From Thermoanaerobaculia bacterium (GTDB lineage: Bacteria; Acidobacteriota; Thermoanaerobaculia; UBA5066): a stretch of 64,000 bases of DNA. Of the stretch, positions 24,196 through 35,748 are shown piece by piece. Every line of letters begins with the position of its first letter. Position 1 is the stretch's first letter. The position numbers and the translations under genes are program-made. A model generated the notes under the pieces. It worked only from the letters and a program-made list of their open reading frames with translations, was not told the DNA's origin and ran no database searches. Where the stretch lies: contig CAWFJJ010000001.1 in NCBI GenBank assembly GCA_963816185.1, forward strand, positions 1-64,000, in the 5' to 3' direction.

Positions 24196-25986
24196 TCATC
24201 CCCGCTCGAGGCGCGCCATCAGGAGCTGACGCTGGAGGACGAGCTCTTTCGGCATCGTGGCCGCGAGCTTCGTGAAGAACTCCTCCTGGTCTTTGAGCTC
24301 GGTCTTCCACGCCTCGATGTCGATGGATTCGGCTTCGTCCACGTCCTCCAGTGACACGGACATGCCGGAAAGATCGAACTCGGCCTGATGCGGGACCCAG
24401 CCGAGCGCGGTCTCCCAGCCGCCGGTGCGCCGGTGGGTGCGGTCGATGATCCACTTCAGGACGCGCATGTTCTCGCCGAAGCCGGGCCACAGAAACCGCC
24501 CGTCGGCTCCCTTGCGAAACCAGTTCACCTGGAAGATCTTCGGAAGGTCTTTGAGGGAGGTCGCCATGTCCAGCCAGTGGTCGAAGTACGCCCCCATGTC
24601 GTACCCGCAGAACGGGAGCATCGCCATCGGGTCGCGGCGCACGACGCCCACCTTCCCCGCGGCGGCGGCGGTCGTCTCCGAGCCGAGCGTCGCGCCCAGG
24701 TAGACGCCGTGCACCCAGTTGAAGGCCTGGACGACGAGCGGCACCGTCGTGGAGCGGCGGCCGCCGAAGACGATGGCGGCGATCGGGACGCCCCCGGGAT
24801 CGTTCGCATGCGGCGACATGTGCGGGTTGTTCGTCATGGGAGCCGTGAAGCGGCTGTTCGGATGCGCCGCCTTCTCCGGGGAGCCCTTCCTCCACGGGCG
24901 GCCCTGCCAGTCGACGAGCTCCTCGGGCACGGCGCCGTCCTTGCCCTCCCACCACACGTCGCCGTCCGGGGTCATCGCGACGTTCGTGTAGATCGTGTCT
25001 TTGGCGATGGTGCGCATCGCGGTGGGGTTCGTGGCGTGGTTCGTCCCGGGCGCGACGCCGAAGTAGCCCGCTTCGGGGTTGATCGCCCAGAGCCGGCCGT
25101 CGGGTCCGGGGCGCATCCAGCAGATGTCGTCGCCCACGGTCCAGACCTTCCATCGGTGAAAGCGCTTCGGCGGGATGAGCATGGCGAAGTTCGTCTTCCC
25201 GCAGGCGCTCGGAAACGCGGCGGCGACGTACGTCGTCTCGCCGCTCGGATCCTCGACGCCGACGATCGTCATGTGCTCGGCCATCCAGCCCTCGCGCCGG
25301 CCGAGATAAGAGCCGATGCGAAGAGCGAGGCACTTCTTTCCGAGAAGGACGTTCCCGCCGTATCCGCTGCCGATCGACCAGACGGTGTTGTCCTCCGGGA
25401 AATGGCAGATGAACCGGCGGTCGGGGTTCACGTCGAGCATGGAGTGGAGGCCCCGGTTGAAGTCGCTCGAAGAGCCGAGCGCGTCGAGAGCGCCCTGGCC
25501 CATGCGCGTCATGATCCCCATGTTCAGGACGACGTAGAGGCTGTCCGTGAGCTCCACGCCGATCTTCGCCATCGGCGAGCCGAAAGGCCCCATGAGGTAA
25601 GGGACGACGTAAAGCGTGCGGCCGGCCATCGAACCGTCGAAGAGGCGGCCGAGCTTCCGGTAAGCTTCTTCCGGCGGCATCCAGTTGTTGGTCGGGCCCG
25701 CTTCCTCTCTCGTTCTCGTGCAGATGAAGGTGAGCTGCTCGACGCGCGCCACGTCGTTCGGGTTGGAGCGATGGAGAGTGCAGCCCGGCAGCTTCTCGTG
25801 ATTCAAAGGGATGAGGATTCCGAGGCGCACGGCTTCGCGCGTCAGCGTTTCTTTTTCGGCGGCCGATCCGTCGCACCAGACCACGCGATCCGGCTTCGTG
25901 AGCCGGACGCACGCCTCGATCCACGAGAGGAGATGGGCGTTCCGCGAAAGCGGAGCGCCGATGCCGGTCGCGGGCGCTGAGCTCAA
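24196..25986 (-). CDS. pckG: Phosphoenolpyruvate carboxykinase (GTP)
   Basis: SNPNDVARVE, GSGYGGN..GKKCLALR, AEHM, AFPSACGKTN, VGDDI, NPEAGYFGVAPGT, HPNSRF, DPMAMLPFCGY; GAGGAG RBS before TTG 25986. Confidence 0.96.
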   Translation of the reverse strand: MSSAPATGIGAPLSRNAHLLSWIEACVRLTKPDRVVWCDGSAAEKETLTREAVRLGILIPLNHEKLPGCTLHRSNPNDVARVEQLTFICTRTREEAGPTNNWMPPEEAYRKLGRLFDGSMAGRTLYVVPYLMGPFGSPMAKIGVELTDSLYVVLNMGIMTRMGQGALDALGSSSDFNRGLHSMLDVNPDRRFICHFPEDNTVWSIGSGYGGNVLLGKKCLALRIGSYLGRREGWMAEHMTIVGVEDPSGETTYVAAAFPSACGKTNFAMLIPPKRFHRWKVWTVGDDICWMRPGPDGRLWAINPEAGYFGVAPGTNHATNPTAMRTIAKDTIYTNVAMTPDGDVWWEGKDGAVPEELVDWQGRPWRKGSPEKAAHPNSRFTAPMTNNPHMSPHANDPGGVPIAAIVFGGRRSTTVPLVVQAFNWVHGVYLGATLGSETTAAAAGKVGVVRRDPMAMLPFCGYDMGAYFDHWLDMATSLKDLPKIFQVNWFRKGADGRFLWPGFGENMRVLKWIIDRTHRRTGGWETALGWVPHQAEFDLSGMSVSLEDVDEAESIDIEAWKTELKDQEEFFTKLAATMPKELVLQRQLLMARLERG

Positions 25987-26067
25987 GGGACTCCTCGGGA
26001 GAGTCGGCCGCGCGGGCGGCGCGAGGGCGAAAAATAGCACGGGAGCCTTTTCTGCTACGGTGACGAG

Positions 26068-26910
26068 GTGCACCGCCTCGTGCGCCTTTACCCGAGGAAA
26101 GCGGGCTCTCGTGCGGCCGGCGCCCTCGCGCGAATGCGCCTTCCCGAAGGGCTGCGCCGCCCGCTCCTCGGCCGTTTCGCGACCGCGGTCGGGGCGAACC
26201 TCGACGAGGCCGAGAGAGACCTCGGAGCGTACGTCTCGTTCCTCGAATTTTTCACCCGACGGCTGAAGGCGGGTGCAAGGCCTCAGGCCCCGGCCGTGCC
26301 GGGCGCGATCAACTCGCCGGTCGACGGCCTCCTGATCTCCGAGGGCCGCGTGAAGGAGGGCACTCTCCTCCAGGCCAAAGGGCTCGACTACGGCCTCGGC
26401 GATCTCCTTGACGGGGATCCGCTCGCTTCGGAATTCGCGCGCGCGCGTTACGCGACGCTCTACCTCGCACCGAAGGACTATCACCGCATCCACGTTCCTC
26501 TCGCGGGAACGGTCCTCGCAGTGGGGCGCGTGGAAGGTGAGCTCTGGCCCGTAAACGCGTGGTCCACCGCCTCGACCCCGCGACTCTACGTGAGGAACCG
26601 CCGCGCCTACTGGATCGCGCGCGGAGCGCGGGAAGCCGAGGGGCTCACCATGGCCGTCGTCATGGTGGCGGCGACGCACGTGGGCGGCGTCGTCGTGGAT
26701 CCGCGTTGGCTCGAGGGTCGCGTCCTGCCGCGCCGCGGCCGGCTCGACGCGGCGAATCTCCCGTGCGCGAGCGGCGACGACCTCGGCGCGTTCGAGCTCG
26801 GCTCAACCGTGGTCCTCCTCGTCGGAGGAGAGAAGGCGGACGCCTGGGATCTCACGCGCGGCCTCGGGCCGGTGAAGGTGGGGGAGAGGCTCGGGCGCTT
26901 CACCGGCTAA
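26068..26910 (+). CDS. psd: Phosphatidylserine decarboxylase proenzyme
   Basis: FFTRRLK, SPVDG, QAKG, YLAPKDYHRIH, FELGSTV (LGST autocleavage site). Confidence 0.93.
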   Translation: MHRLVRLYPRKAGSRAAGALARMRLPEGLRRPLLGRFATAVGANLDEAERDLGAYVSFLEFFTRRLKAGARPQAPAVPGAINSPVDGLLISEGRVKEGTLLQAKGLDYGLGDLLDGDPLASEFARARYATLYLAPKDYHRIHVPLAGTVLAVGRVEGELWPVNAWSTASTPRLYVRNRRAYWIARGAREAEGLTMAVVMVAATHVGGVVVDPRWLEGRVLPRRGRLDAANLPCASGDDLGAFELGSTVVLLVGGEKADAWDLTRGLGPVKVGERLGRFTG

Positions 26911-27791: not shown

Positions 27792-27802
27792 GACACGCCG
27801 CC

Positions 27803-29335
27803 GTGCTGGCGTTGCTCGCCGCCGCCTGGCCGCTCGCGGCGGGGCCCGGCGGCACGCTGCGCTGGGGCGGCGACGCGGAGGGCGGCGCGCCGTTCGTCGA
27901 GGCGGACCCGGCGAATCCCGCGGCCGTGCGGGGCTTCGACGTTGAGATCGCCGGGGCCCTCGCGAAGGGCCTCGGACGAACGCCGCAGTTCGTCCAGGTC
28001 GCCTACCAGTCGATCGACCAGTCCGTCGAGCGCGGCGACTTCGACATCGGACTCTCGGGCATGGAGGACACACCGGCGCGCCGCGCCGCGCACTCCGTGA
28101 CGATGCCGTACTTCGAGTTTCGCGAGGTGCTCGCCGTGCGTGCCTCCGAGGCGAGCCGGTTCCGCACCCTCGACGACTTCAGGGGACGCAAGGTCGGGAC
28201 TCTTTCGGGCACGATCGCGTACGACGTCCTTCGCGCCGCCGAGACCAAGCACGCTTTCGTCACCGTGTCGTACGACGACGACGTCCACCCGTACGAGGAC
28301 CTCGCCCAGGGACGCCTCGACGCGGTTCTGCTCGACCACGTCCTTGCGGCACGTTCTCTGAGGCGCGTCCCGGGCCTCGCGGTCCTGCCCGGCGCGGTCG
28401 CGACCGGACGCTACGTCGGCGTCCTCGCGAAGGGGAACGCGGCGCTGAGGGACGCGATCGATGTCCTGCTGAAGGAGATGATGCGGGACGGGACGCTGCG
28501 GAAGATCTTCCAGAAGTGGAACGTCTGGGACGAGGAGCAGGCGGCATTCGAAGAAGAGGAGAAGAGGAAGATTTCTGTGAATGAAAATGCGGCGGACCGG
28601 GCGGCCGAAGCGCTGCGAGCGAACACGCCGCATGCGGGCGCCTCGGCGCCCCCCTCTTCACCTTCTAAGAAGTCTTCTTCTTCCTCTTCTCTTTCTCTCG
28701 TTATTTCTTATCTCCCTTCCCTCTTCCGAGCCGCGCTCGTGACGATCGTTCTCTCGTGCGTTGCGATGGCGCTCGCCGTCGCCCTCGGAATCGGGATCGC
28801 GAGCGGCCGCATTTACGGAGGCGGTCTCGTTCGCGCCGCGCTGACGGGCTACGTGGAGCTAATTCGCGGCACGCCCGTGCTCCTGCAGCTCTTCGTTCTC
28901 TATTACGGCCTGTCGTCCGTCGTGCGCCTGCCGGCCTTCGTCGCCGCGCTCCTGGGTCTCGGCCTGAACTACGCGGCATACGAGAGCGAGATCTATCGCG
29001 GCGCCCTCGAGGCCGTGCCGAGGGGGCAGCTCGAGGCCGCGCGCACGCTCGGGCTCACGGAAGGGCAGGTCCTGCGTCTCGTGCGCGGGCCGCAGGCTTT
29101 CCGCCTCGCGCTCGCGCCGATGACGAACGACTTCGTCGCGCTCCTGAAGGACTCGTCTCTCGTCTCGGTCGTGACCGTCGTCGAGCTCACGAAGCAGACG
29201 GCGATTTTCGCGACGAACATCGGAAGCTGGGCGCTCCCGGGCGCTCTGTGCGCGGCGCTGTATCTTGCGATGTCCCTTCCGCTCTCGCGTCTCGCGCGGC
29301 ATCTGGAGGAACGGTGGAGCGCGCCCTCGGCCTGA
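27803..29335 (+). CDS. Polar amino-acid ABC transporter, fused substrate-binding protein + permease
   Basis: SBP_bac_3 motifs (GFDVEIA, GRLDAVL) followed by YVELIRGTPVLLQL, AAYESEIYRG, GQLEAA, LLKDSSL; start uncertain. Confidence 0.92.
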   Translation: MLALLAAAWPLAAGPGGTLRWGGDAEGGAPFVEADPANPAAVRGFDVEIAGALAKGLGRTPQFVQVAYQSIDQSVERGDFDIGLSGMEDTPARRAAHSVTMPYFEFREVLAVRASEASRFRTLDDFRGRKVGTLSGTIAYDVLRAAETKHAFVTVSYDDDVHPYEDLAQGRLDAVLLDHVLAARSLRRVPGLAVLPGAVATGRYVGVLAKGNAALRDAIDVLLKEMMRDGTLRKIFQKWNVWDEEQAAFEEEEKRKISVNENAADRAAEALRANTPHAGASAPPSSPSKKSSSSSSLSLVISYLPSLFRAALVTIVLSCVAMALAVALGIGIASGRIYGGGLVRAALTGYVELIRGTPVLLQLFVLYYGLSSVVRLPAFVAALLGLGLNYAAYESEIYRGALEAVPRGQLEAARTLGLTEGQVLRLVRGPQAFRLALAPMTNDFVALLKDSSLVSVVTVVELTKQTAIFATNIGSWALPGALCAALYLAMSLPLSRLARHLEERWSAPSA

Positions 29336-30117
29336 GCGCGCCCGTGCTGTCGGTCAGCGGCCTCCGCCTTTCGCGTGGAGCCGTGGAGGTCCTGAAGGGA
29401 GTGGACCTTCTGCTCGCGCGCGGCGAGCTCGTGGCTCTCATGGGTCCTTCGGGCTGCGGAAAGACGACGATCCTCCGGGCGATCACGGCGCTCGAGCCGT
29501 TCCAGGCCGGCACGATTCTGGTGGACGGCGTGCCGCTGAACCCGGGGCCGATGCCGCGCGAAGCCGCGCTCGGCGCGCTGCGCCGCAAGGTGGGGCTCGT
29601 CTTCCAGCTTCATTGTCTCTTCGACCACCTGTCCGCGCTCGACAACGTCACTCTCGCTCCCATCCACGCCCTGCGCCATTCGCGCTCCGAGGCGGAGGCG
29701 CGAGCGCTCACACTGCTCGAAGGGCTCGGCGTCGCGGCCCGCGCACGCTCGCGGCCCCGAGAGCTCTCCGGGGGCGAGGCGCAGCGCGTCGCGATCGCGC
29801 GAGCCCTCGCCGTCGACCCCCCGCTTCTCCTGATGGACGAGCCCACCGCGTCCCTCGATCCGGCGCGCCGGAACGAGCTCGGAGACTCGCTGGAGGCCTT
29901 GATCGCCCAGGGACGGACTCTTCTCCTCGCGACCCACGACGTCGATTTCGCCCGGGACTACGCCACGCGCGTCCTGGTGCTCGCAGGCGGAGCCGTGGTC
30001 GAAGACGGTGCGCCCGGCGAGGTCCTCGTGCACCCGAGGCACCCTGCCACGGTTCAGCTCCTGCAGTCGAAAGGGAAGAAGGCCTCGTCGGTGAAAGGTG
30101 AGGGTCCGTCCCTCTGA
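29314..30117 (+). CDS. Amino-acid ABC transporter ATP-binding protein
   Basis: GPSGCGKTT Walker A, LSGGEAQRVAIARAL, LLMDEPT, ATHD; start uncertain (29314-29344). Confidence 0.93.
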   Translation: MERALGLSAPVLSVSGLRLSRGAVEVLKGVDLLLARGELVALMGPSGCGKTTILRAITALEPFQAGTILVDGVPLNPGPMPREAALGALRRKVGLVFQLHCLFDHLSALDNVTLAPIHALRHSRSEAEARALTLLEGLGVAARARSRPRELSGGEAQRVAIARALAVDPPLLLMDEPTASLDPARRNELGDSLEALIAQGRTLLLATHDVDFARDYATRVLVLAGGAVVEDGAPGEVLVHPRHPATVQLLQSKGKKASSVKGEGPSL

Positions 30118-30151
30118 ACGGGCCGAAAACGCCTCCCCGATCGCCTCCAGG

Positions 30152-30160
30152 TGCTACCCT
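30152..30160 (+). promoter_or_regulatory. Candidate extended -10 element (TGC-TACCCT) of the amidase-actin-SPOR operon
   Basis: TGn-TANNNT 12 nt upstream of ATG 30173 in the short intergenic gap. Confidence 0.4.
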
Positions 30161-30172
30161 TTTTGAGAGCAC

Positions 30173-31165
30173 ATGGCCACCGCGAGGCGCCTCAGGCAGT
30201 CGATCCTCAAGGACGCGATCCGCGAGAACGTGGACGTCATCGAGAACCGCCTGCCCAGGGGGCTCCGGCGCTCCGACCGCTGGCGCCGGATCCTTCTTCG
30301 GACGTCGGTCTTCGTCGTCGTGCCGCTCGCCCTGTTCCTCTCGATCAACGCGCTGACGACGGGCCGCGGCGAGCGCACGGACGTCCTCGTCGTGTCGTCT
30401 CCGTCTGCGGCGCCTGCGGCGCCCGCAAGCGTGATCAATGCTCCGAACGGCCTCGAGCCCTCGCTCTTCCACCTCGAGGTGCGCTCCATCGTGATCGACC
30501 CGGGGCACGGGGGAGCGGATCCCGGAGCGTCCGCCTCCGGCGTGTCGGAAAAGGACGTGACGCTCGACGTGGCGCGCCGCCTGAGAGACCTCCTCGTCGC
30601 CCAGAAGGTCGCCGTTTCGCTCACGCGGGAAGGGGACACGACGCTGTCGCTGCGCGACCGTGTCATCCTCGCGAACGAGAAGAAGGCCGACCTCTTCGTG
30701 TCGATCCACGTGAACTCCCTTCCGGGCGTGAAGGAGAAGCGCGGCATCGAGACGTACTTTCTCGGTACGACGACCGATCCGCACGTCGAGCGGCTCGCTC
30801 TCGACGAGAACCGGACCTCGGGCTACACGATGGCCGATTTTCGGCGTCTTCTCGAGGGTGTCCTCGCGGATTCGCGACAGGGCGAGTCCCGGAAATTCGC
30901 CGAGGCCGTCCAGGGAGGGCTCGTGACCTCGCTCCGCCCGTTCGTGCCCCGGCTCGATGACCGGGGCGTGAGGAGCGCGCCGTTCGCCGTCCTCATCGCC
31001 ACGGAGATGCCGGGCATCCTCGCGGAGGTGTCGACGGTCTCGAACGAGGACGAAGCGCGCCATCTCCGGGACCCCGAGTATCGTCAGCAGATCGCACGGG
31101 CCCTTTCGAACGGGATCCTCGCGTTCGCGGAGTCGCGGAACCATCCGCCCTCCAAACGGAGTTGA
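30173..31165 (+). CDS. N-acetylmuramoyl-L-alanine amidase (Amidase_3), N-terminally anchored
   Basis: IVIDPGHGGADPG, EKDVTL, ADLFVSIHVNS, RGIETY, APFAVL..PGILAEV; hydrophobic segment VFVVVPLALFLSINAL. Confidence 0.93.
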   Translation: MATARRLRQSILKDAIRENVDVIENRLPRGLRRSDRWRRILLRTSVFVVVPLALFLSINALTTGRGERTDVLVVSSPSAAPAAPASVINAPNGLEPSLFHLEVRSIVIDPGHGGADPGASASGVSEKDVTLDVARRLRDLLVAQKVAVSLTREGDTTLSLRDRVILANEKKADLFVSIHVNSLPGVKEKRGIETYFLGTTTDPHVERLALDENRTSGYTMADFRRLLEGVLADSRQGESRKFAEAVQGGLVTSLRPFVPRLDDRGVRSAPFAVLIATEMPGILAEVSTVSNEDEARHLRDPEYRQQIARALSNGILAFAESRNHPPSKRS

Positions 31166-31166
31166 C

Positions 31167-32186
31167 ATGAGCGGGAAGAAGGACGTTCTCCACGTCGGCA
31201 TCGACCTCGGCACGTCGCGCAGCGCGATCACGGCGTCGAACGGCGTGCATCACGTCGTCGAGAGCTACGTGGGCTGGCCCCTCGACATGGTCGCGAAGAA
31301 GGTCGTGAAAAAGTCGATCCTCTTCGGCGCCGAGGCCCTCGAGAACCGGCCGATGCTCGACTTGCACCGCCCGCTCGAGCGCGGCCTCATCAAGCAGGGA
31401 TCGGCGAAGGACGAGGAGGCGGTGCACGAGCTGTTGAAGCACCTCATCTCGCTGGCCGGCAGAAAAGACGGCCAGGTCGTCCATGCCGTCGTGGGCGTGC
31501 CGGCGGAGGCGCTCCGCGTTTCGCGGCAGCACTTGCGCGGCGCCGTCAAGGGGATCGCCGACGCTCTTCTCATCGTGTCCGAGCCGTTCGCGGTGGCCTT
31601 CGGGATGGACGCGCTCCTCCATACGATGATCATCGACATCGGAGCGGGCACGACGGACTTCTGCGTCATGAACGGACGCTACCCCACGGAGGACGACCAG
31701 CGCACGCTGACGCACGCGGGCGACTCCATCGACGAGCAGCTCATGGCGCTCGTGAAAACGAAGCATCCCGAAGGACGCTTCTCGATCCACATGGTTCGCG
31801 ACTGGAAAGAGAAGAACAGCTTCATCGGCAGCGCGCCGGGGCCGGTCGTCGTGCGGTTCCCCGTGAAAGGCAAGCCGGCCGACGTGGACATCACAGCCGA
31901 GATGAAGAAGGCCTGCGAGAGCGTCGTCGGTCCCATCGCCGAGACCATGCTCGACCTGCTCTCGAAGGTCGAGCCCGAGTACCAGGAGAAGGTGCAGCGA
32001 AACGTCGTCCTCGCGGGCGGCGGCTCGCAGATTCCCGGGCTCGCCGCCGCGCTCGAGAAGTCGCTTGCCGAGCTGGGCGGAGGCCGCGTACGCGCCGTCG
32101 AGGACCCCGTCTTCGCGGGGTCGAACGGCGGTCTCGCCATCGCGTTGGATGCGCCGGAAGGCGACTGGGAGCCGCTCTCGGCATGA
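31167..32186 (+). CDS. Bacterial actin homolog, MamK-like
   Basis: Actin motifs GIDLGTS, VSEPF, IIDIGAGTTDFC, VLAGGGS; segments VGWPLD, LDLHRPLERG, GVPAEA, DQRTLTHAGDSIDE, EPEYQ match MamK as I recall it better than MreB. Confidence 0.85.
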   Translation: MSGKKDVLHVGIDLGTSRSAITASNGVHHVVESYVGWPLDMVAKKVVKKSILFGAEALENRPMLDLHRPLERGLIKQGSAKDEEAVHELLKHLISLAGRKDGQVVHAVVGVPAEALRVSRQHLRGAVKGIADALLIVSEPFAVAFGMDALLHTMIIDIGAGTTDFCVMNGRYPTEDDQRTLTHAGDSIDEQLMALVKTKHPEGRFSIHMVRDWKEKNSFIGSAPGPVVVRFPVKGKPADVDITAEMKKACESVVGPIAETMLDLLSKVEPEYQEKVQRNVVLAGGGSQIPGLAAALEKSLAELGGGRVRAVEDPVFAGSNGGLAIALDAPEGDWEPLSA

Positions 32187-33794
32187 GCCCGATCGACAGC
32201 GGCTTCCCGCGCGATTCCGGAGTGAAGAGGAGGATGCTCCCGTCGGTGACCGACGTCGTGCGCGAGCTCGCGAAGGTCATCTCCGCGGATCCCGCGGTGC
32301 TCTTCAAGGGCGCGCGGAGCGTCGTCGCCGAAGAGCTCGCGAAGGTGAAGCAGGGTTTCGAGGCGGCCCCGCTCGACGTCCTCGTCAAAAGGGCGCGCCT
32401 GCAGCTCGAGCGGGACGGCGAGGCGACGCCCGTTTCCGATCCCGCGCCTCCGCGCATGCCCGTCTTCCCGGCGCGGCAAGGGCCCCCGCGCGAGACGCCG
32501 GGACCCTCTTCGGCCCACGCGGGCGGTGCCCCCGTGAAATCGCCGGCCTCGGACGATCCCTTTCAGGACGTCGCGTCCCGAGCAGAGCTGAACTGGGAAA
32601 AGGAGATCCCGATCCAGGCCGAGGATGCGCCCTTTCGGTCCGCCATCATTCCCATCCCGTACAAGGCGCGCGCGCCGCTCGAGATCTCCCAGCCGATCGA
32701 AGCGCCGCCGAAGGCCGCCCCGGAGCCGAAGCCGCCGCCCGTGCCGAAGCCGCAGCCGGAGCTGGAGCTGGATTTCGCAAGGCCCCGGTCCGCACCGGCC
32801 GCGCCCGAGCCGCCCGCACAGACCCTCAGGCCCGTGCCCCCGAAACCCGCGGCGGCGATGTCCGAGCCGCCGGCGCCCAAGGCAAAGCCCGTGTCTCCTG
32901 AGCCGGAGCCCGAAAAGCCGTTGCCGCGCCCTGCGGTCGCGTTCGCGCCCGCCATCCCGCTCGTGAATCCGCGCGAACCCGAGGTCGTGGAGCCGATCTC
33001 CCCGCCCGCGGTGGTCCCTCTGCCGCCCGGCCCCGAGCGGTTCCTGAGGGCGCCGACATCGCCGGTGCGACACGAGCCCGCGGTGAGGTCCATGCCGGAG
33101 ATTCCTCCATCCGAAGAGACTCTCGAGGACCGCGACAACACCCAGCCGGCCATGGAGGAGTTCAGGTTCAAGGCGGCGGAGCGCCCGGCCCCTGCTCCGG
33201 CGCCCGCTCGCTCGAGCCGCACGGGCTGGATCGCGGCGATCTTGGGAGTCCTTGCGATCGGAGCAGGCCTTACCTGGGCCGTGCGCGAGGGCGTCTTCAA
33301 GAGCGGGATCCTGAGGAGCGCCCCACCCGCCGCGCAGCAGGAGTCCGACGCGACGCCTCCCGCGAGCGCCGTGCCCGCGCCGGTGCCCACGGCTGCCCTG
33401 GTACCTGAAGAGAAGCCGGCGGCTCCGCCGCCGAAGGCCCTTGCCGCGCCGGCGAAGACAGCCGGCCGCCGGTCCTCCCTCGGGTGCCGCGGTCCCGAAG
33501 GGCCGCGCGGCGGTGCTCCTGACTCCCGACTGGGCGGGGAAGCCCATCGTCTACGTCATCCACTTCTCGTCGACGAAGGATCGCGAGGGCGCGGAGAAAG
33601 AGGCGCGGAAGCTCGGCGCCGCGCTCGGCGCTCCCGCACACGCCGTCGAGGTGGATCTCGGCGAAAAGGGGATCTGGTACCGCGTCGTGATCGGCGAGTT
33701 CAAAGACGTGGACTCCGCGCGCGCGTTCCGCGCCGAGCTCGAGGCGAAGAAGACGCCCGGCATGGGCTTCGTCTACGAGATGCGGGGGCGCTGA
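32183..33794 (+). CDS. Pro-rich single-TM protein with C-terminal SPOR domain (apparent +1 frameshift near 33460-33470)
   Basis: ATGA overlap with the actin gene; long Pro/Glu-rich region; TM GWIAAILGVLAIGAGLTWAV; SPOR-like YVIHFSS..A..EARKL..KGIWYRVVIGEFKD..ARAF lies in the next frame (33441..33794). Confidence 0.75.
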
Positions 33795-33799
33795 CGGCG

Positions 33800-35019
33800 G
33801 CGAAAAGCGCGTCGGCCACCAGCGATCGCGCGGGCAATGCGTTGCGATATCGCATCTTGCTTGCATTGATGCTCCTCGCGGTACGGAGATGGTGACCGCG
33901 ATGGCGGTGATTTTTGTCGCGGTGTTGGGCTCGTGGAGCGTTTGGCAGCATCGGCGGACCGGCCCGTGGGTGCTCGTTTCGCAGAAGGGGCCGCTCGTCC
34001 TCCAGTTCGGCAACAATCCCAATGCGAACGGTACGTACAACGCAACACTGAAGCCGGTCGTCTCACCGGCTGGCTGGGAATTCATCCAGGCGCGCCCTTG
34101 GATGGCGGCAAAGCTCGCCGTGAGGAAATTCGCGTACTTCTTCGGCTTCCTGAAGGACGGGTGGAACGTGCCACGTGCGTCGGCGCTGCTCATCGCACGA
34201 TTGACGTTTGGCGCGGTCTCGCTCGTCGTGTGCGAGGCGCTCATGCGAAGCACGGCATCGGTGTTTGCGCTGGCGGGCGCCGTCGTGATCCTCGCGACTC
34301 GTCGACTGCGCAGCGAGCTTTGGGTTCTCCCCGCCGTGATCGGCGCGACACTGGGTCTGCACGTCGTGTCGATCTCCTCGCACCGATTCGCGATCCCCGT
34401 GCTTCCGGTGCTTTTTCTCCTCGCGGGGATCGCCGTTGCGACCGGTGCGCATTGGTTATTGCGGCGCGTTCCCGCCCTGATGCTTTGGGCCGGGCTGTTC
34501 GTGTTCACCGCGTGGGCGGGGGTGGCTGCAGCCTGTCATCCAAACGTGCACGCGCGCGTTGAGGGCGAGGACCTCGATGGAAACCTCGCAGACGACGTCG
34601 TCGACGAACGGGCGAGCAATGGGCACGCTCGTTACGCGGACATGGGCCGAGGCCAGCGCGGGATGGCCATCGTGACGGACGAATTCCTGCCGAAAGGGAG
34701 GTTTCGGCTGACGCTCGATTTGCGTGCCGACCGGGCAGGTGAGGTGGCAGAAGTAACGATGCCAATGGAGGGAGGGAGAGACGCATGCAGGGAGATGTTG
34801 CGTTCATCTGGCCGAGCTCGTTACGAACGGGTCATCGTGGACGGCATGCTGCCTGCGGACACGTCGGTGAAGGTGATCGTCACCAGCAATGGTGTCGCCG
34901 ATGTTTGGCTCGACGGGCTTTACATCGAAGCGGGCCTACGGGACAGAATGAAAGGCGACCTCTTCGGCAATGTGCACGTCGAGGAGCTCGTCTTCGTGAG
35001 CCGCGGCACCGCGCCTTGA
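33800..35019 (+). pseudogene. Truncated or internally deleted GT-C (ArnT-like) membrane protein
   Basis: ORF 33889..35019 begins mid-family (W..R.TG..VLVSQKG..GNNPNANG; RFAIPVLP); a short hydrophobic N-terminal-like piece (LRYRILLALMLLAV) lies in another frame; atypical codon usage. Confidence 0.5.
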
Positions 35020-35080: not shown

Positions 35081-35308
35081 ATGAGGACGACACTCGAGAT
35101 CGACGACGACGTCTTGCAGGCGGCGAAGGAGATCGCGGCCAACCGCTCGACCACGGCCGGTCGAGTCCTCTCGGAGCTGGCGCGAAAAGCGCTAGAGCCT
35201 GGAAGATCGCCGCGCGTGCGCAACGGTGTTCCGCTGATTCCTCGCCGGCCGAAGGGGAGCGTTCGCCCGACGATGGCTCTCGTCAACCGGCTCCGGGACG
35301 AGGCGTGA
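35081..35308 (+). CDS. vapB: Type II TA antitoxin, VapB (ribbon-helix-helix)
   Basis: MRTTLEIDDDVLQAAKEIA..TAGRVLSELARKAL..RNGVPL..VNRLRDE; GTGA overlap with the PIN gene. Confidence 0.9.
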   Translation: MRTTLEIDDDVLQAAKEIAANRSTTAGRVLSELARKALEPGRSPRVRNGVPLIPRRPKGSVRPTMALVNRLRDEA

Positions 35309-35748
35309 CGCGCGTCGCCCTCCTCGACGTCAACGTCCTCGTCGCGCTGTTCGATCCTGATCACGTGCACCACGAAGCCGCGCACCGGTGGTTCGGCGGC
35401 AACCGTCAGGCGGGCTGGGCCACGTGTCCGATCACCGAGAACGGGCTCGTGCGGATTCTTTCGAACCCCGCATACATGGCCAGCCCCGAGACGCGGGGAG
35501 CGATCATCCGTCGCCTCGGCGAGTTCTGCGCGAGCGGTGGTCACGTCTTCTGGCCGGACGAGATCTCGCTTCGGGACCCCGGTCTTTTCAGGTGGACCGC
35601 GCCCGTAGCTCATCAGAAGCTGACAGACGTCTACCTGCTGGGTCTTGCCAGGAGCAAGACTGGGAGACTCGCCACATTCGACCGGGGCATCCCTGCCGCG
35701 GCCGTGGTCGGAGCCGAGCGGGGAACGCTCGAAGTGATCCCGGCCTGA
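35305..35748 (+). CDS. vapC: Type II TA toxin, VapC PIN-domain ribonuclease
   Basis: LLDVNVLVAL..HVHHEAA, WATCPITENG, TDVYLLGLA, LATFD. Confidence 0.92.
   Translation: MTRVALLDVNVLVALFDPDHVHHEAAHRWFGGNRQAGWATCPITENGLVRILSNPAYMASPETRGAIIRRLGEFCASGGHVFWPDEISLRDPGLFRWTAPVAHQKLTDVYLLGLARSKTGRLATFDRGIPAAAVVGAERGTLEVIPA

Follow-up and report, generated by a model that had tools for sequence, protein, structure and literature searches.

A candidate operon for a cytoskeleton-coupled peptidoglycan amidase in Thermoanaerobaculia, centred on a conserved pair of amidase and MamK-family actin genes

Why should a gene for a MamK-like actin lie between a gene for a cell-wall amidase and a gene for a SPOR protein? 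The question is raised by a 64,000-nt stretch of a Thermoanaerobaculia genome (contig CAWFJJ010000001.1 of assembly GCA_963816185.1, positions 1 to 64,000; hereafter the window), in which a transmembrane (TM)-anchored Amidase_3 protein, a MamK-family-like actin and a Pro-rich bitopic SPOR protein are encoded one after another, co-oriented on the + strand. Near-identical proteins and the closest loci are labelled Thermoanaerobaculia or Acidobacteriota by their sources. The amidase and the actin are the conserved and invariant core of the module, and we consider it probable, at roughly 0.6, that the locus forms an operon that couples a peptidoglycan amidase to the cytoskeleton. A first-pass annotation of the same DNA had proposed a module of all three genes; the idea is supported in outline, re-centred on the actin and an amidase with a cytoplasmic tail, with the SPOR adaptor as a lineage-specific part.

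The three genes are tightly packed. The amidase stop codon (TGA, 31163–31165) is separated by 1 base from the actin start codon (ATG at 31167), and an ATGA at 32183–32186 overlaps the actin stop with the start of the third gene (gene 3 below). These coordinates bear out the co-orientation on the + strand, the 1-nt gap and the ATGA overlap described in the first-pass annotation. The features of the core pair are as follows, with their evidence in brackets (AF2, AlphaFold2).

30173..31165, + strand: membrane-anchored N-acetylmuramoyl-L-alanine amidase, 330 residues (Pfam, PDB matches, AF2)
30185..30250, + strand: cytoplasmic N-terminal helix of the amidase, residues 5–26, predicted actin-docking peptide (alignments, complex prediction)
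30308..30355, + strand: TM segment of the amidase, residues 46–61, with an Arg-rich stretch before it (sequence, AF2 helix 29–61)
31167..32186, + strand: MamK-family-like actin ATPase, 339 residues (NCBIfam, PDB, invariant motifs)

The amidase-actin pair

The first gene encodes an anchored amidase, as the first-pass annotation had proposed. Amidase_3 is matched at residues 106–316 (Pfam E 3.4e-48; 164 bits against a cut-off of 27), behind a basic cytoplasmic N-terminal tail, a single TM segment at residues 46–61 and a disordered periplasmic linker at residues 62–100. The AF2 model has a first helix at 2–23, a basic stretch, a TM helix at 29–61, the disordered linker, with a predicted local distance difference test score (pLDDT) below 50 at residues 59–98, and the catalytic domain; the topology is presumably N-in. 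The best sequence matches in PDB are Bartonella AmiB (3ne8) and E. coli AmiA (8c2o), and AmiA, AmiB and AmiC also head the fold matches, with AmiA 8c2o the best (E 4.5e-18, TMt 0.81). Residues H112, E126, H179 and E285, which we take to be the metal ligands and the catalytic Glu, do not vary among 38 homologues drawn from several phyla. The alignment with 3ne8 and 8c2o runs unbroken over an insertion at residues 205–245, where the alignment with 4rn7 splits and which short amidases lack; extra helices are predicted at 203–254, at lower pLDDT (AF2). The corresponding insertion is auto-inhibitory in AmiA, AmiB and AmiC. Judged by its sequence, the enzyme is likely active and likely auto-inhibited in the same manner. 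Nonetheless, it misses the equivalog cut-offs of these proteins (AmiA, 115 against 400; AmiC, 104 against 700; AmiB, 82 against 532), and in place of their soluble periplasmic architecture, with a signal peptide and, in AmiB/C, AMIN, it has a cytoplasmic helix and a TM anchor. No LytM activator gene was conserved beside the module in our neighbourhood survey.

The second gene encodes an actin of the MamK family in a setting other than a magnetosome cluster. Its best curated match is the NCBIfam MamK model NF040964, at 376 bits and thus below the cut-off of 400, with BeeR at 217 bits (cut-off 530), MreB at 71 and the FtsA model at 22 bits. The best PDB match, Magnetospirillum MamK 5ljw, aligns end to end (252 bits, residues 5–337). 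The MamK-like actin of the first-pass annotation stands as a MamK-family protein in a non-magnetosome context. Residues D13, G15, T16, E139, D157, G159, G161, T162, G284 and G285 are invariant among the 38 homologues, all of which keep the phosphate-1, phosphate-2 and adenosine motifs together with E139; we assume that these residues serve nucleotide binding, with E139 as the catalytic Glu. Conservation is unusually high, with a mean column identity of 78% over 38 sequences from several phyla. The protein has no membrane-targeting helix of its own in its sequence, matches Alp7A_C weakly (E 0.0022) and matches no ParM family. Amidase and SPOR genes flank it where a magnetosome cluster would be expected for MamK, and no magnetosome-type domains were seen in the 37 ORFs (open reading frames) of the window scanned with Pfam, although mam genes were not searched for genome-wide.

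The pairing of amidase and actin recurs in every evaluable relative, which makes the arrangement more than chance. Among relatives, 14 of 14 loci show the same succession of amidase, actin, gene 3 and SPOR. Sequences related to the actin are encoded in 317 stretches of a collection of species representatives, and among the best 80 of them (65–96% identity) Amidase_3 lies directly upstream in 79; the 80th, which lacks an amidase call, has only 136 nt of upstream sequence. The two sets share some genomes. By their record titles, the best 80 loci come from Thermoanaerobaculia, Holophagales, Terriglobia, Methylomirabilota/Rokubacteria, Binatia and 'Deltaproteobacteria'. Of 401 genomes sampled evenly across the phylum, 30 carry the actin, in 17 of 227 genera, and the more distant copies obtained in this way (48–67% actin identity) have the amidase upstream in all 12 cases. 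An outward walk from the most distant copy led to 217 further relatives, which represent a second clade (clade B, as against the window's clade A). Among the best 80 of these, the amidase adjoins the actin in 75 of 75 evaluable loci, including one (L147) with a 4-nt overlap. The clade-B loci belong to Nitrospirota/Thermodesulfovibrionia, Thermodesulfobacteriota including Desulfobulbaceae, Aminicenantes, Chrysiogenales, metagenome-assembled genomes (MAGs) of Gamma-, Alpha- and Betaproteobacteria, and two isolates. The first-pass annotation had named a lack of conserved synteny in relatives as a refuting outcome; with this gene-neighbourhood survey the check has been run, and its hypothesis passed.

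Co-occurrence across genomes is equally strict. In 41 genomes of relatives, including the unpublished G030 and G025, the actin is present in 30: in 24 of 24 of the genus, in 5 of 7 of one sister family and in 0 of 9 of another. The same 30 genomes, with none discordant, carry an orthologue of the amidase over its full length (E <= 6e-56; alignment starting at residue 1–6, apart from copies that are frameshifted or truncated by a contig end); the remaining 11 hold catalytic-domain paralogues only (E 3e-31 to 3e-36). Elsewhere, the window's own genome encodes a canonical FtsA (410 bits), an MreB-like gene, two more Amidase_3 loci and three more SPOR loci, indicating that the module is an addition to these functions and no replacement of them.

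The two clades differ in their closeness to MamK. Clade-A relatives score 370–378 bits on NF040964, whereas amidase-linked actins of clade B (L121, L128, L173, L178 and L186) pass the model with 418–435 bits against the cut-off of 400, even though their neighbour is an amidase gene and not a magnetosome gene, and clade B is also the more similar to Magnetospirillum MamK (303 bits, against 252 for the window's actin). Thus, a match to the MamK model in a metagenome or MAG is no evidence of magnetotaxis.

The amidase tail is the part of the enzyme that is predicted to meet the actin. Its motif is roughly RLKRQMLRDAVRENLDxIEGR in clade A and ILRGVYEENLRIIGK in clade B, with an invariant Asn (N19). 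A pattern that is post hoc, having been written from the same sequences on which it was counted, matches 75 of 81 tails in clade A and 71 of 75 in clade B, where shuffles lead one to expect 0.6 and 1.0; a hidden Markov model of the clade-A tail recovered only 4 of 77 clade-B tails. The actin was modelled together with amidase residues 1–44, a check that the first-pass annotation had also named, and docking was predicted with ipSAE values of 0.83, 0.82 and 0.83, the best of three controls scoring 0.00. In calibration, 58 of 80 solved complexes attained the ipSAE mark, as did 2 of 110 mismatched pairs. The predicted contacts join actin residues 120–151, 170–172 and 325–339 to amidase residues 4–25; at least 96% of the contacts recur between runs, and the partner pLDDT does not fall below 63. 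Counted from the phosphate-2 motif, the contacted actin residues presumably line the hydrophobic cleft between subdomains IA and IIA. Helices have been solved in this cleft in other actin-fold proteins, namely in ParM-ParR and actin-WH2. The amidase N-terminal helix is thus a predicted actin ligand, and the tether between filament and membrane, which the first-pass annotation had assigned to the SPOR protein, finds its evidence in the amidase's own helix.

Gene 3 and the SPOR adaptors of related loci

Gene 3 encodes, in order, a three-helix N-terminal domain, an acidic motif, a Pro/Ala/Glu spacer, a TM segment, a periplasmic linker and a SPOR domain, distributed over two reading frames in the window.

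32183..33455, + strand: gene 3, first frame, up to and including the first part of the periplasmic linker (ORF list, AF2, alignments)
32234–32416, + strand: three-helix N-terminal domain, residues 18–78 (AF2)
32552–32605, + strand: acidic DDPF...LNWEKE motif (alignments)
33224–33283, + strand: TM segment, residues 348–367 (sequence)
33440..33470, + strand: apparent +1 frameshift, one base too many near 33455 (frame plot, two frames)
33456..33794, + strand: gene 3, second frame, with periplasmic linker and SPOR (domain 33552–33749, stop 33792–33794)

The helical cytoplasmic domain, the Pro-rich and acidic linker, the TM segment and the SPOR domain listed by the first-pass annotation are all present, the SPOR domain being frame-shifted here. 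AF2 predicts three helices at residues 22–77 with a pLDDT of 85–90, and the cytoplasmic spacer of about 270 residues consists of 25% Pro, 16% Ala and 10% Glu. Pfam identifies nothing in the first frame. The SPOR domain (Pfam 6e-10; 40 bits at 33552–33749 in the genome scan) sits in an ORF at 33441–33794, one frame over, and GC content plotted by codon position changes its coding frame near 33440. What the first-pass annotation took for one protein up to 33794 therefore does not exist as such in the window: 33794 belongs to the second frame, and the annotation had bridged a +1 frameshift unawares.

The break in gene 3 is probably an assembly error. In relatives, gene 3 is a single ORF ending in SPOR in 35 of 35 intact homologues scanned with Pfam, and a related-strain contig (151 nt, depth 2.3) has one base fewer at 33455, which would restore the frame; these two observations point to an assembly error or a very recent mutation. 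Another related-strain piece, with loose ends, has a 2-base gap at 33425. Both come from public sequencing runs of related strains, consulted as contigs only, in which at most 0.32 of the sampled words were found and the pieces are short and of low depth. Gene 3 is also split between frames in L036, L058, L140 and L172 (4 of 76 relatives with an N-terminal adaptor domain and SPOR), suggesting that this GC-rich and Pro-rich stretch is prone to indels in assemblies.

The three-helix domain defines a small family. Among 1.84 billion sequences, 80 representatives were found at E <= 0.001, almost always with the domain at the N-terminus of a protein of 320–650 residues. A PDB fold search with the domain gave nothing at E <= 0.001, the SelA N-domain (3wcn_A) at rank 25 being not significant and rejected, and the ESM Atlas gave no usable match; across PDB, Atlas and the 1.84 billion representatives, no relative outside the adaptor family was detected. 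The first-pass analogy with RodZ and MamJ accordingly holds for the architecture, but not for this domain. A common origin with the amidase tail was also considered and dropped, as the two are unrelated (hhalign probability 0.3%). In P0130 and P0177 the domain lies at about residues 214–311 and not at the N-terminus; these may be mis-called starts, read-through from the overlapping actin gene, or real fusions. The acidic motif, in the form DDPF...(L/D)L(N/R)W(E/D), is kept from the window's genus to Holophagales-labelled loci, and it may be a short linear binding motif.

Which adaptors accompany the amidase-actin pair more widely was surveyed in the 3.5 kb downstream of the actin at 172 loci.

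Three-helix domain and SPOR in one ORF: 46 loci
Three-helix domain and SPOR, split by a frameshift: 2 loci
Three-helix domain only, cut by the contig end: 10 loci
Receiver-like domain and SPOR in one ORF: 25 loci
Receiver-like domain and SPOR, split by a frameshift: 2 loci
Receiver-like domain only: 3 loci
Other SPOR protein: 1 locus
No adaptor within 3.5 kb: 83 loci

SPOR adaptors with unrelated cytoplasmic domains have been recruited in two separate clades. In a FastTree tree of 173 actins, rooted with the genome's MreB and carrying local Shimodaira-Hasegawa-like supports only, the three-helix adaptor falls in one subclade of clade A (59 rows, 2 changes), and the receiver-type adaptor in clade B (30 rows, 10 changes). 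Pfam identifies Response_reg together with SPOR in Nitrospirota examples. L128, L131, L144 and about 27 other clade-B loci of Nitrospirota and Thermodesulfobacteriota encode a Response_reg-like domain, an acidic linker, a TM segment and SPOR. In the sequences inspected, the phospho-acceptor Asp of the receiver is not conserved and is often E, N or R, so the clade-B adaptor domains are pseudo-receivers. Two unrelated domains mounted on the same linker-TM-SPOR design beside the same gene pair provide the best evidence that glycan reading belongs to the module, and a link between the amidase product and a SPOR reader is plausible. Of the self-contained three-gene loop in the first-pass annotation, the recurrent attachment of SPOR survives; the invariant core is smaller and comprises the amidase and the actin only.

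Proposed mechanism, alternatives and known systems

Our preferred reading, in which the filament positions the amidase, would work as follows. The MamK-family actin would polymerise in the cytoplasm, and the N-terminal helix of the bitopic amidase would enter the cleft between actin subdomains IA and IIA, so that the actin would be held at the membrane by the amidase tail. Filament dynamics, through position or clustering, would then decide where, or whether, the periplasmic AmiA/B/C-type amidase acts. In the window's lineage, the SPOR domain would read the denuded glycan produced by the amidase, and the three-helix domain of gene 3, on its Pro-rich spacer, would signal back to either the actin or the tail of the amidase. 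The process served may be division or the remodelling of poles or cell shape. The positioning of the enzyme by the filament, the SPOR feedback and the cellular process are what we infer from these parts.

Several observations weigh against this reading. No sigma-70-like promoter was found in 29800–34300, although a consensus scan may not suit the phylum. In the window gene 3 is not one ORF, the frame from 32183 remaining open to 33895 as Arg-rich, out-of-frame text. An adaptor of some kind accompanies 89 of the 172 loci surveyed and 83 have none within 3.5 kb, so the SPOR loop is not essential to the core. The calibration of the complex prediction holds only roughly, with our own alignments as input and a partner pLDDT of only 63–64, and the passing ipSAE may partly reflect the known ParM-ParR and actin-WH2 structures. 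Moreover, the IA/IIA cleft takes part in longitudinal filament contacts, so that binding of the helix may be limited to monomers or filament ends; this would suit a role in capping, nucleation or end-tracking more than travel along a filament.

Other explanations share part of this evidence. The actin might regulate the amidase across the membrane, ATP-dependent polymerisation clustering or pulling the anchor helix and relieving auto-inhibition in an FtsEX-EnvC-like manner. The continuous alignment of the catalytic domain with AmiB 3ne8 and AmiA 8c2o through the insertion, the helices at 203–254, the lack of a conserved LytM activator gene beside the module and the predicted direct docking of tail and actin are all in line with such control, but the disordered linker of ~40 residues between the TM segment and the catalytic domain is a poor conduit for a conformational signal, even if clustering could still act, and we consider regulation of this kind unlikely. 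The amidase might also be mainly a membrane anchor, nucleator or cap for a filament whose task lies elsewhere (cargo, pole, chromosome or organelle), with cleavage secondary. An actin that lacks its own membrane-targeting helix, and a predicted binding site equivalent to the ParR-type cleft on ParM, where an end- or monomer-binding ligand would sit, fit this picture; it is made improbable by the invariance of the Zn-ligand and catalytic residues in the 38 amidase homologues, by the recruitment in two clades of SPOR adaptors that would read the amidase product, and by the lack of any other conserved cargo gene near the module.

The evidence for binding is in silico, and gene adjacency alone is a weak argument; the genes could therefore share regulation but no physical contact, for example as accessory division genes maintained side by side for joint expression, and the predicted complex could be an artefact. 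We attach a low probability to this explanation. Against it, the adjacency is invariant down to 48% actin identity and in at least six phyla, actin and amidase are strictly co-present or co-absent, all three complex controls scored 0.00, and a conserved cytoplasmic motif on a periplasmic enzyme calls for a cytoplasmic partner. Plasmids and phages generally carry actin-like genes and amidases, and the weak Alp7A_C match could be taken as a trace of a mobile-element cassette with a ParM/Alp-type segregation actin and a lysis amidase. This origin is very improbable and was rejected for the steady chromosomal, vertical pattern of the module: the locus lies among chromosomal housekeeping genes (PEPCK, ABC transporter, POR), the actin is present in all 24 genomes of the genus and keeps its 78% mean column identity, the amidase is N-in anchored with an AmiA-like domain, and no ParR or parC-like partner was seen.

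Filament positioning of an amidase has its closest analogue in the FtsA-FtsN-AmiA/B/C loop, the septal self-enhancing loop of the E. coli divisome (PMC7613929, PMC6895207 and PMC9426451). The same three roles recur there, namely an actin-fold protein at the membrane, a bitopic protein in which a cytoplasmic contact element is followed by a TM segment, a linker and a C-terminal SPOR domain, and Amidase_3 enzymes making the denuded glycan to which SPOR binds. In contrast, the module's actin is of the MamK family, with only 22 bits on the FtsA model and a canonical FtsA elsewhere in the genome; its amidase is membrane-anchored with a predicted actin-binding helix, whereas AmiA/B/C are soluble and recruited by AMIN/LytM; and all three roles are encoded in one putative operon. 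Gene 3 resembles FtsN in having a C-terminal SPOR domain after a single TM segment (frame-shifted in the window, one ORF in 35 of 35 relatives). It differs in its score on the FtsN model TIGR02223 (18.8 bits against a cut-off of 107.65) and in having a folded three-helix domain and a cytoplasmic spacer of ~270 residues where FtsN has a short basic FtsA-binding peptide.

Other bacterial actin systems share single traits with the module. MamJ is an acidic, repetitive adaptor that links MamK to membrane cargo. The module's actin is closest to MamK among solved and curated relatives (252 bits to 5ljw, 376 on NF040964); it differs from MamK-MamJ in having a peptidoglycan amidase as its partner, and in the window it lies below the MamK cut-off that its sister clade exceeds. 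As in ParM-ParR, a short adaptor helix is predicted in the IA/IIA cleft, which suggests end-binding or insertional polymerisation, but the module has neither a centromere nor a DNA-binding adaptor and is chromosomal, highly conserved and wall-linked. In the MreB-RodZ elongasome and in Bacillus MreBH-LytE, wall enzymes are directed by an actin filament by way of a bitopic adaptor, and hydrolase placement is cytoskeleton-dependent. The enzymes of those systems are synthases or a secreted endopeptidase, and the window's genome has a separate MreB; we know of no hydrolase with an actin-binding peptide of its own. FtsEX-EnvC provides an example of a cytoplasmic ATPase that controls a periplasmic AmiA/B-type amidase across the membrane. 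FtsEX uses an ABC-type ATPase and a LytM activator where the module has an actin, and the ABC transporter upstream of the module is of the amino-acid type.

MamK-related actins outside the magnetosome context have been described before. They include BeeR (PMC11929497), Bbp (PMC10580974), whose neighbours include a Kelch-domain protein, saltatorellin (10.1101/817700) and a further orphan, Mad28 (PMC12713370). BeeR is a separate family, on whose model the window's actin scores 217 bits against a cut-off of 530. The word 'amidase' is absent from the main texts of PMC11929497, PMC10580974, 10.1101/817700 and PMC10653835, the last on diverse magnetotactic actins. No description of an amidase-actin module was found in the literature searched, which did not extend to subscription journals, and the two papers that mention both MamK and amidase are unrelated, judged by title and abstract; the statement of the first-pass annotation that it knew of no described system of this composition agrees with this search.

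An amidase docked on an actin would mean that wall cleavage is directed from the cytoplasm by a route not yet described, as far as we know. Only a handful of bacterial actins have known functions, namely MreB, FtsA, ParM and its relatives, and MamK, and to our knowledge no function has so far been assigned to MamK-like genes outside magnetotactic bacteria. A large MamK-like group, spanning hundreds of species and at least six phyla, thus gains an invariant partner, along with a predicted contact that can be tested, a helix of ~20 residues on a peptidoglycan amidase. If filament positioning is true, the enzyme would be the first hydrolase known to us that is wired directly to a cytoskeletal filament, the operon would be a compact analogue of the FtsA-FtsN-amidase feedback loop, and the module would be a candidate ancestor for the magnetosome cytoskeleton. 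A bolder and doubtful extension is that MamK-family filaments and tailed amidases form a fourth kind of bacterial actin machine. In it, the amidase helix would occupy the barbed-end cleft in the manner of ParR on ParM, growing or treadmilling filament ends would draw the anchored amidase along the inner membrane, leaving tracks or zones of denuded glycan, SPOR adaptors, recruited independently in Acidobacteriota and Nitrospirota, would read these tracks and feed back on the filament, and magnetosome MamK would be a specialised offshoot of an older and widespread wall-remodelling actin. The offshoot idea is in line with clade B passing the MamK model and lying closer to Magnetospirillum MamK.

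Neighbouring genes

The module lies among genes of other functions. Upstream are genes for phosphoenolpyruvate carboxykinase (PEPCK), an alpha/beta hydrolase, a fused solute-binding/permease protein and an amino-acid-type ABC transporter ATPase; downstream are a membrane ORF of 376 residues, a PIN-domain gene and 2-oxoacid:ferredoxin oxidoreductase (POR). Elsewhere in the window are genes for polysaccharide functions, transport and signalling. A terminator-like hairpin, identified by consensus match only, lies at 33895–33908, just past the SPOR stop.

The ABC transporter at 27797–29335 combines SBP_bac_3 and BPD_transp_1 in one ORF, with its ATPase beside it at 29371–30117. Its position immediately before the module is restricted to the window's genus and a small number of others (25 of 147 loci), and this was the largest cluster in the survey, no gene being widely conserved upstream of the amidase at the 147 loci.

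The 376-residue membrane ORF (33889–35019) is without a Pfam match and has a lower GC content at third codon positions (GC3, about 0.78). It was considered as a part of the module and rejected, as tblastn found no match in any of the 94 related loci queried. The PIN-domain gene follows at 35305–35748. The region of the 376-residue ORF may be a small strain-specific insertion directly after the module. At the other side, the PEPCK ORF (24196–26679, – strand, 827 residues) has a Pfam match that starts only at residue 253, and the long stretch before it probably results from an ORF called too far towards its N-terminus in high-GC DNA, and is no real domain.

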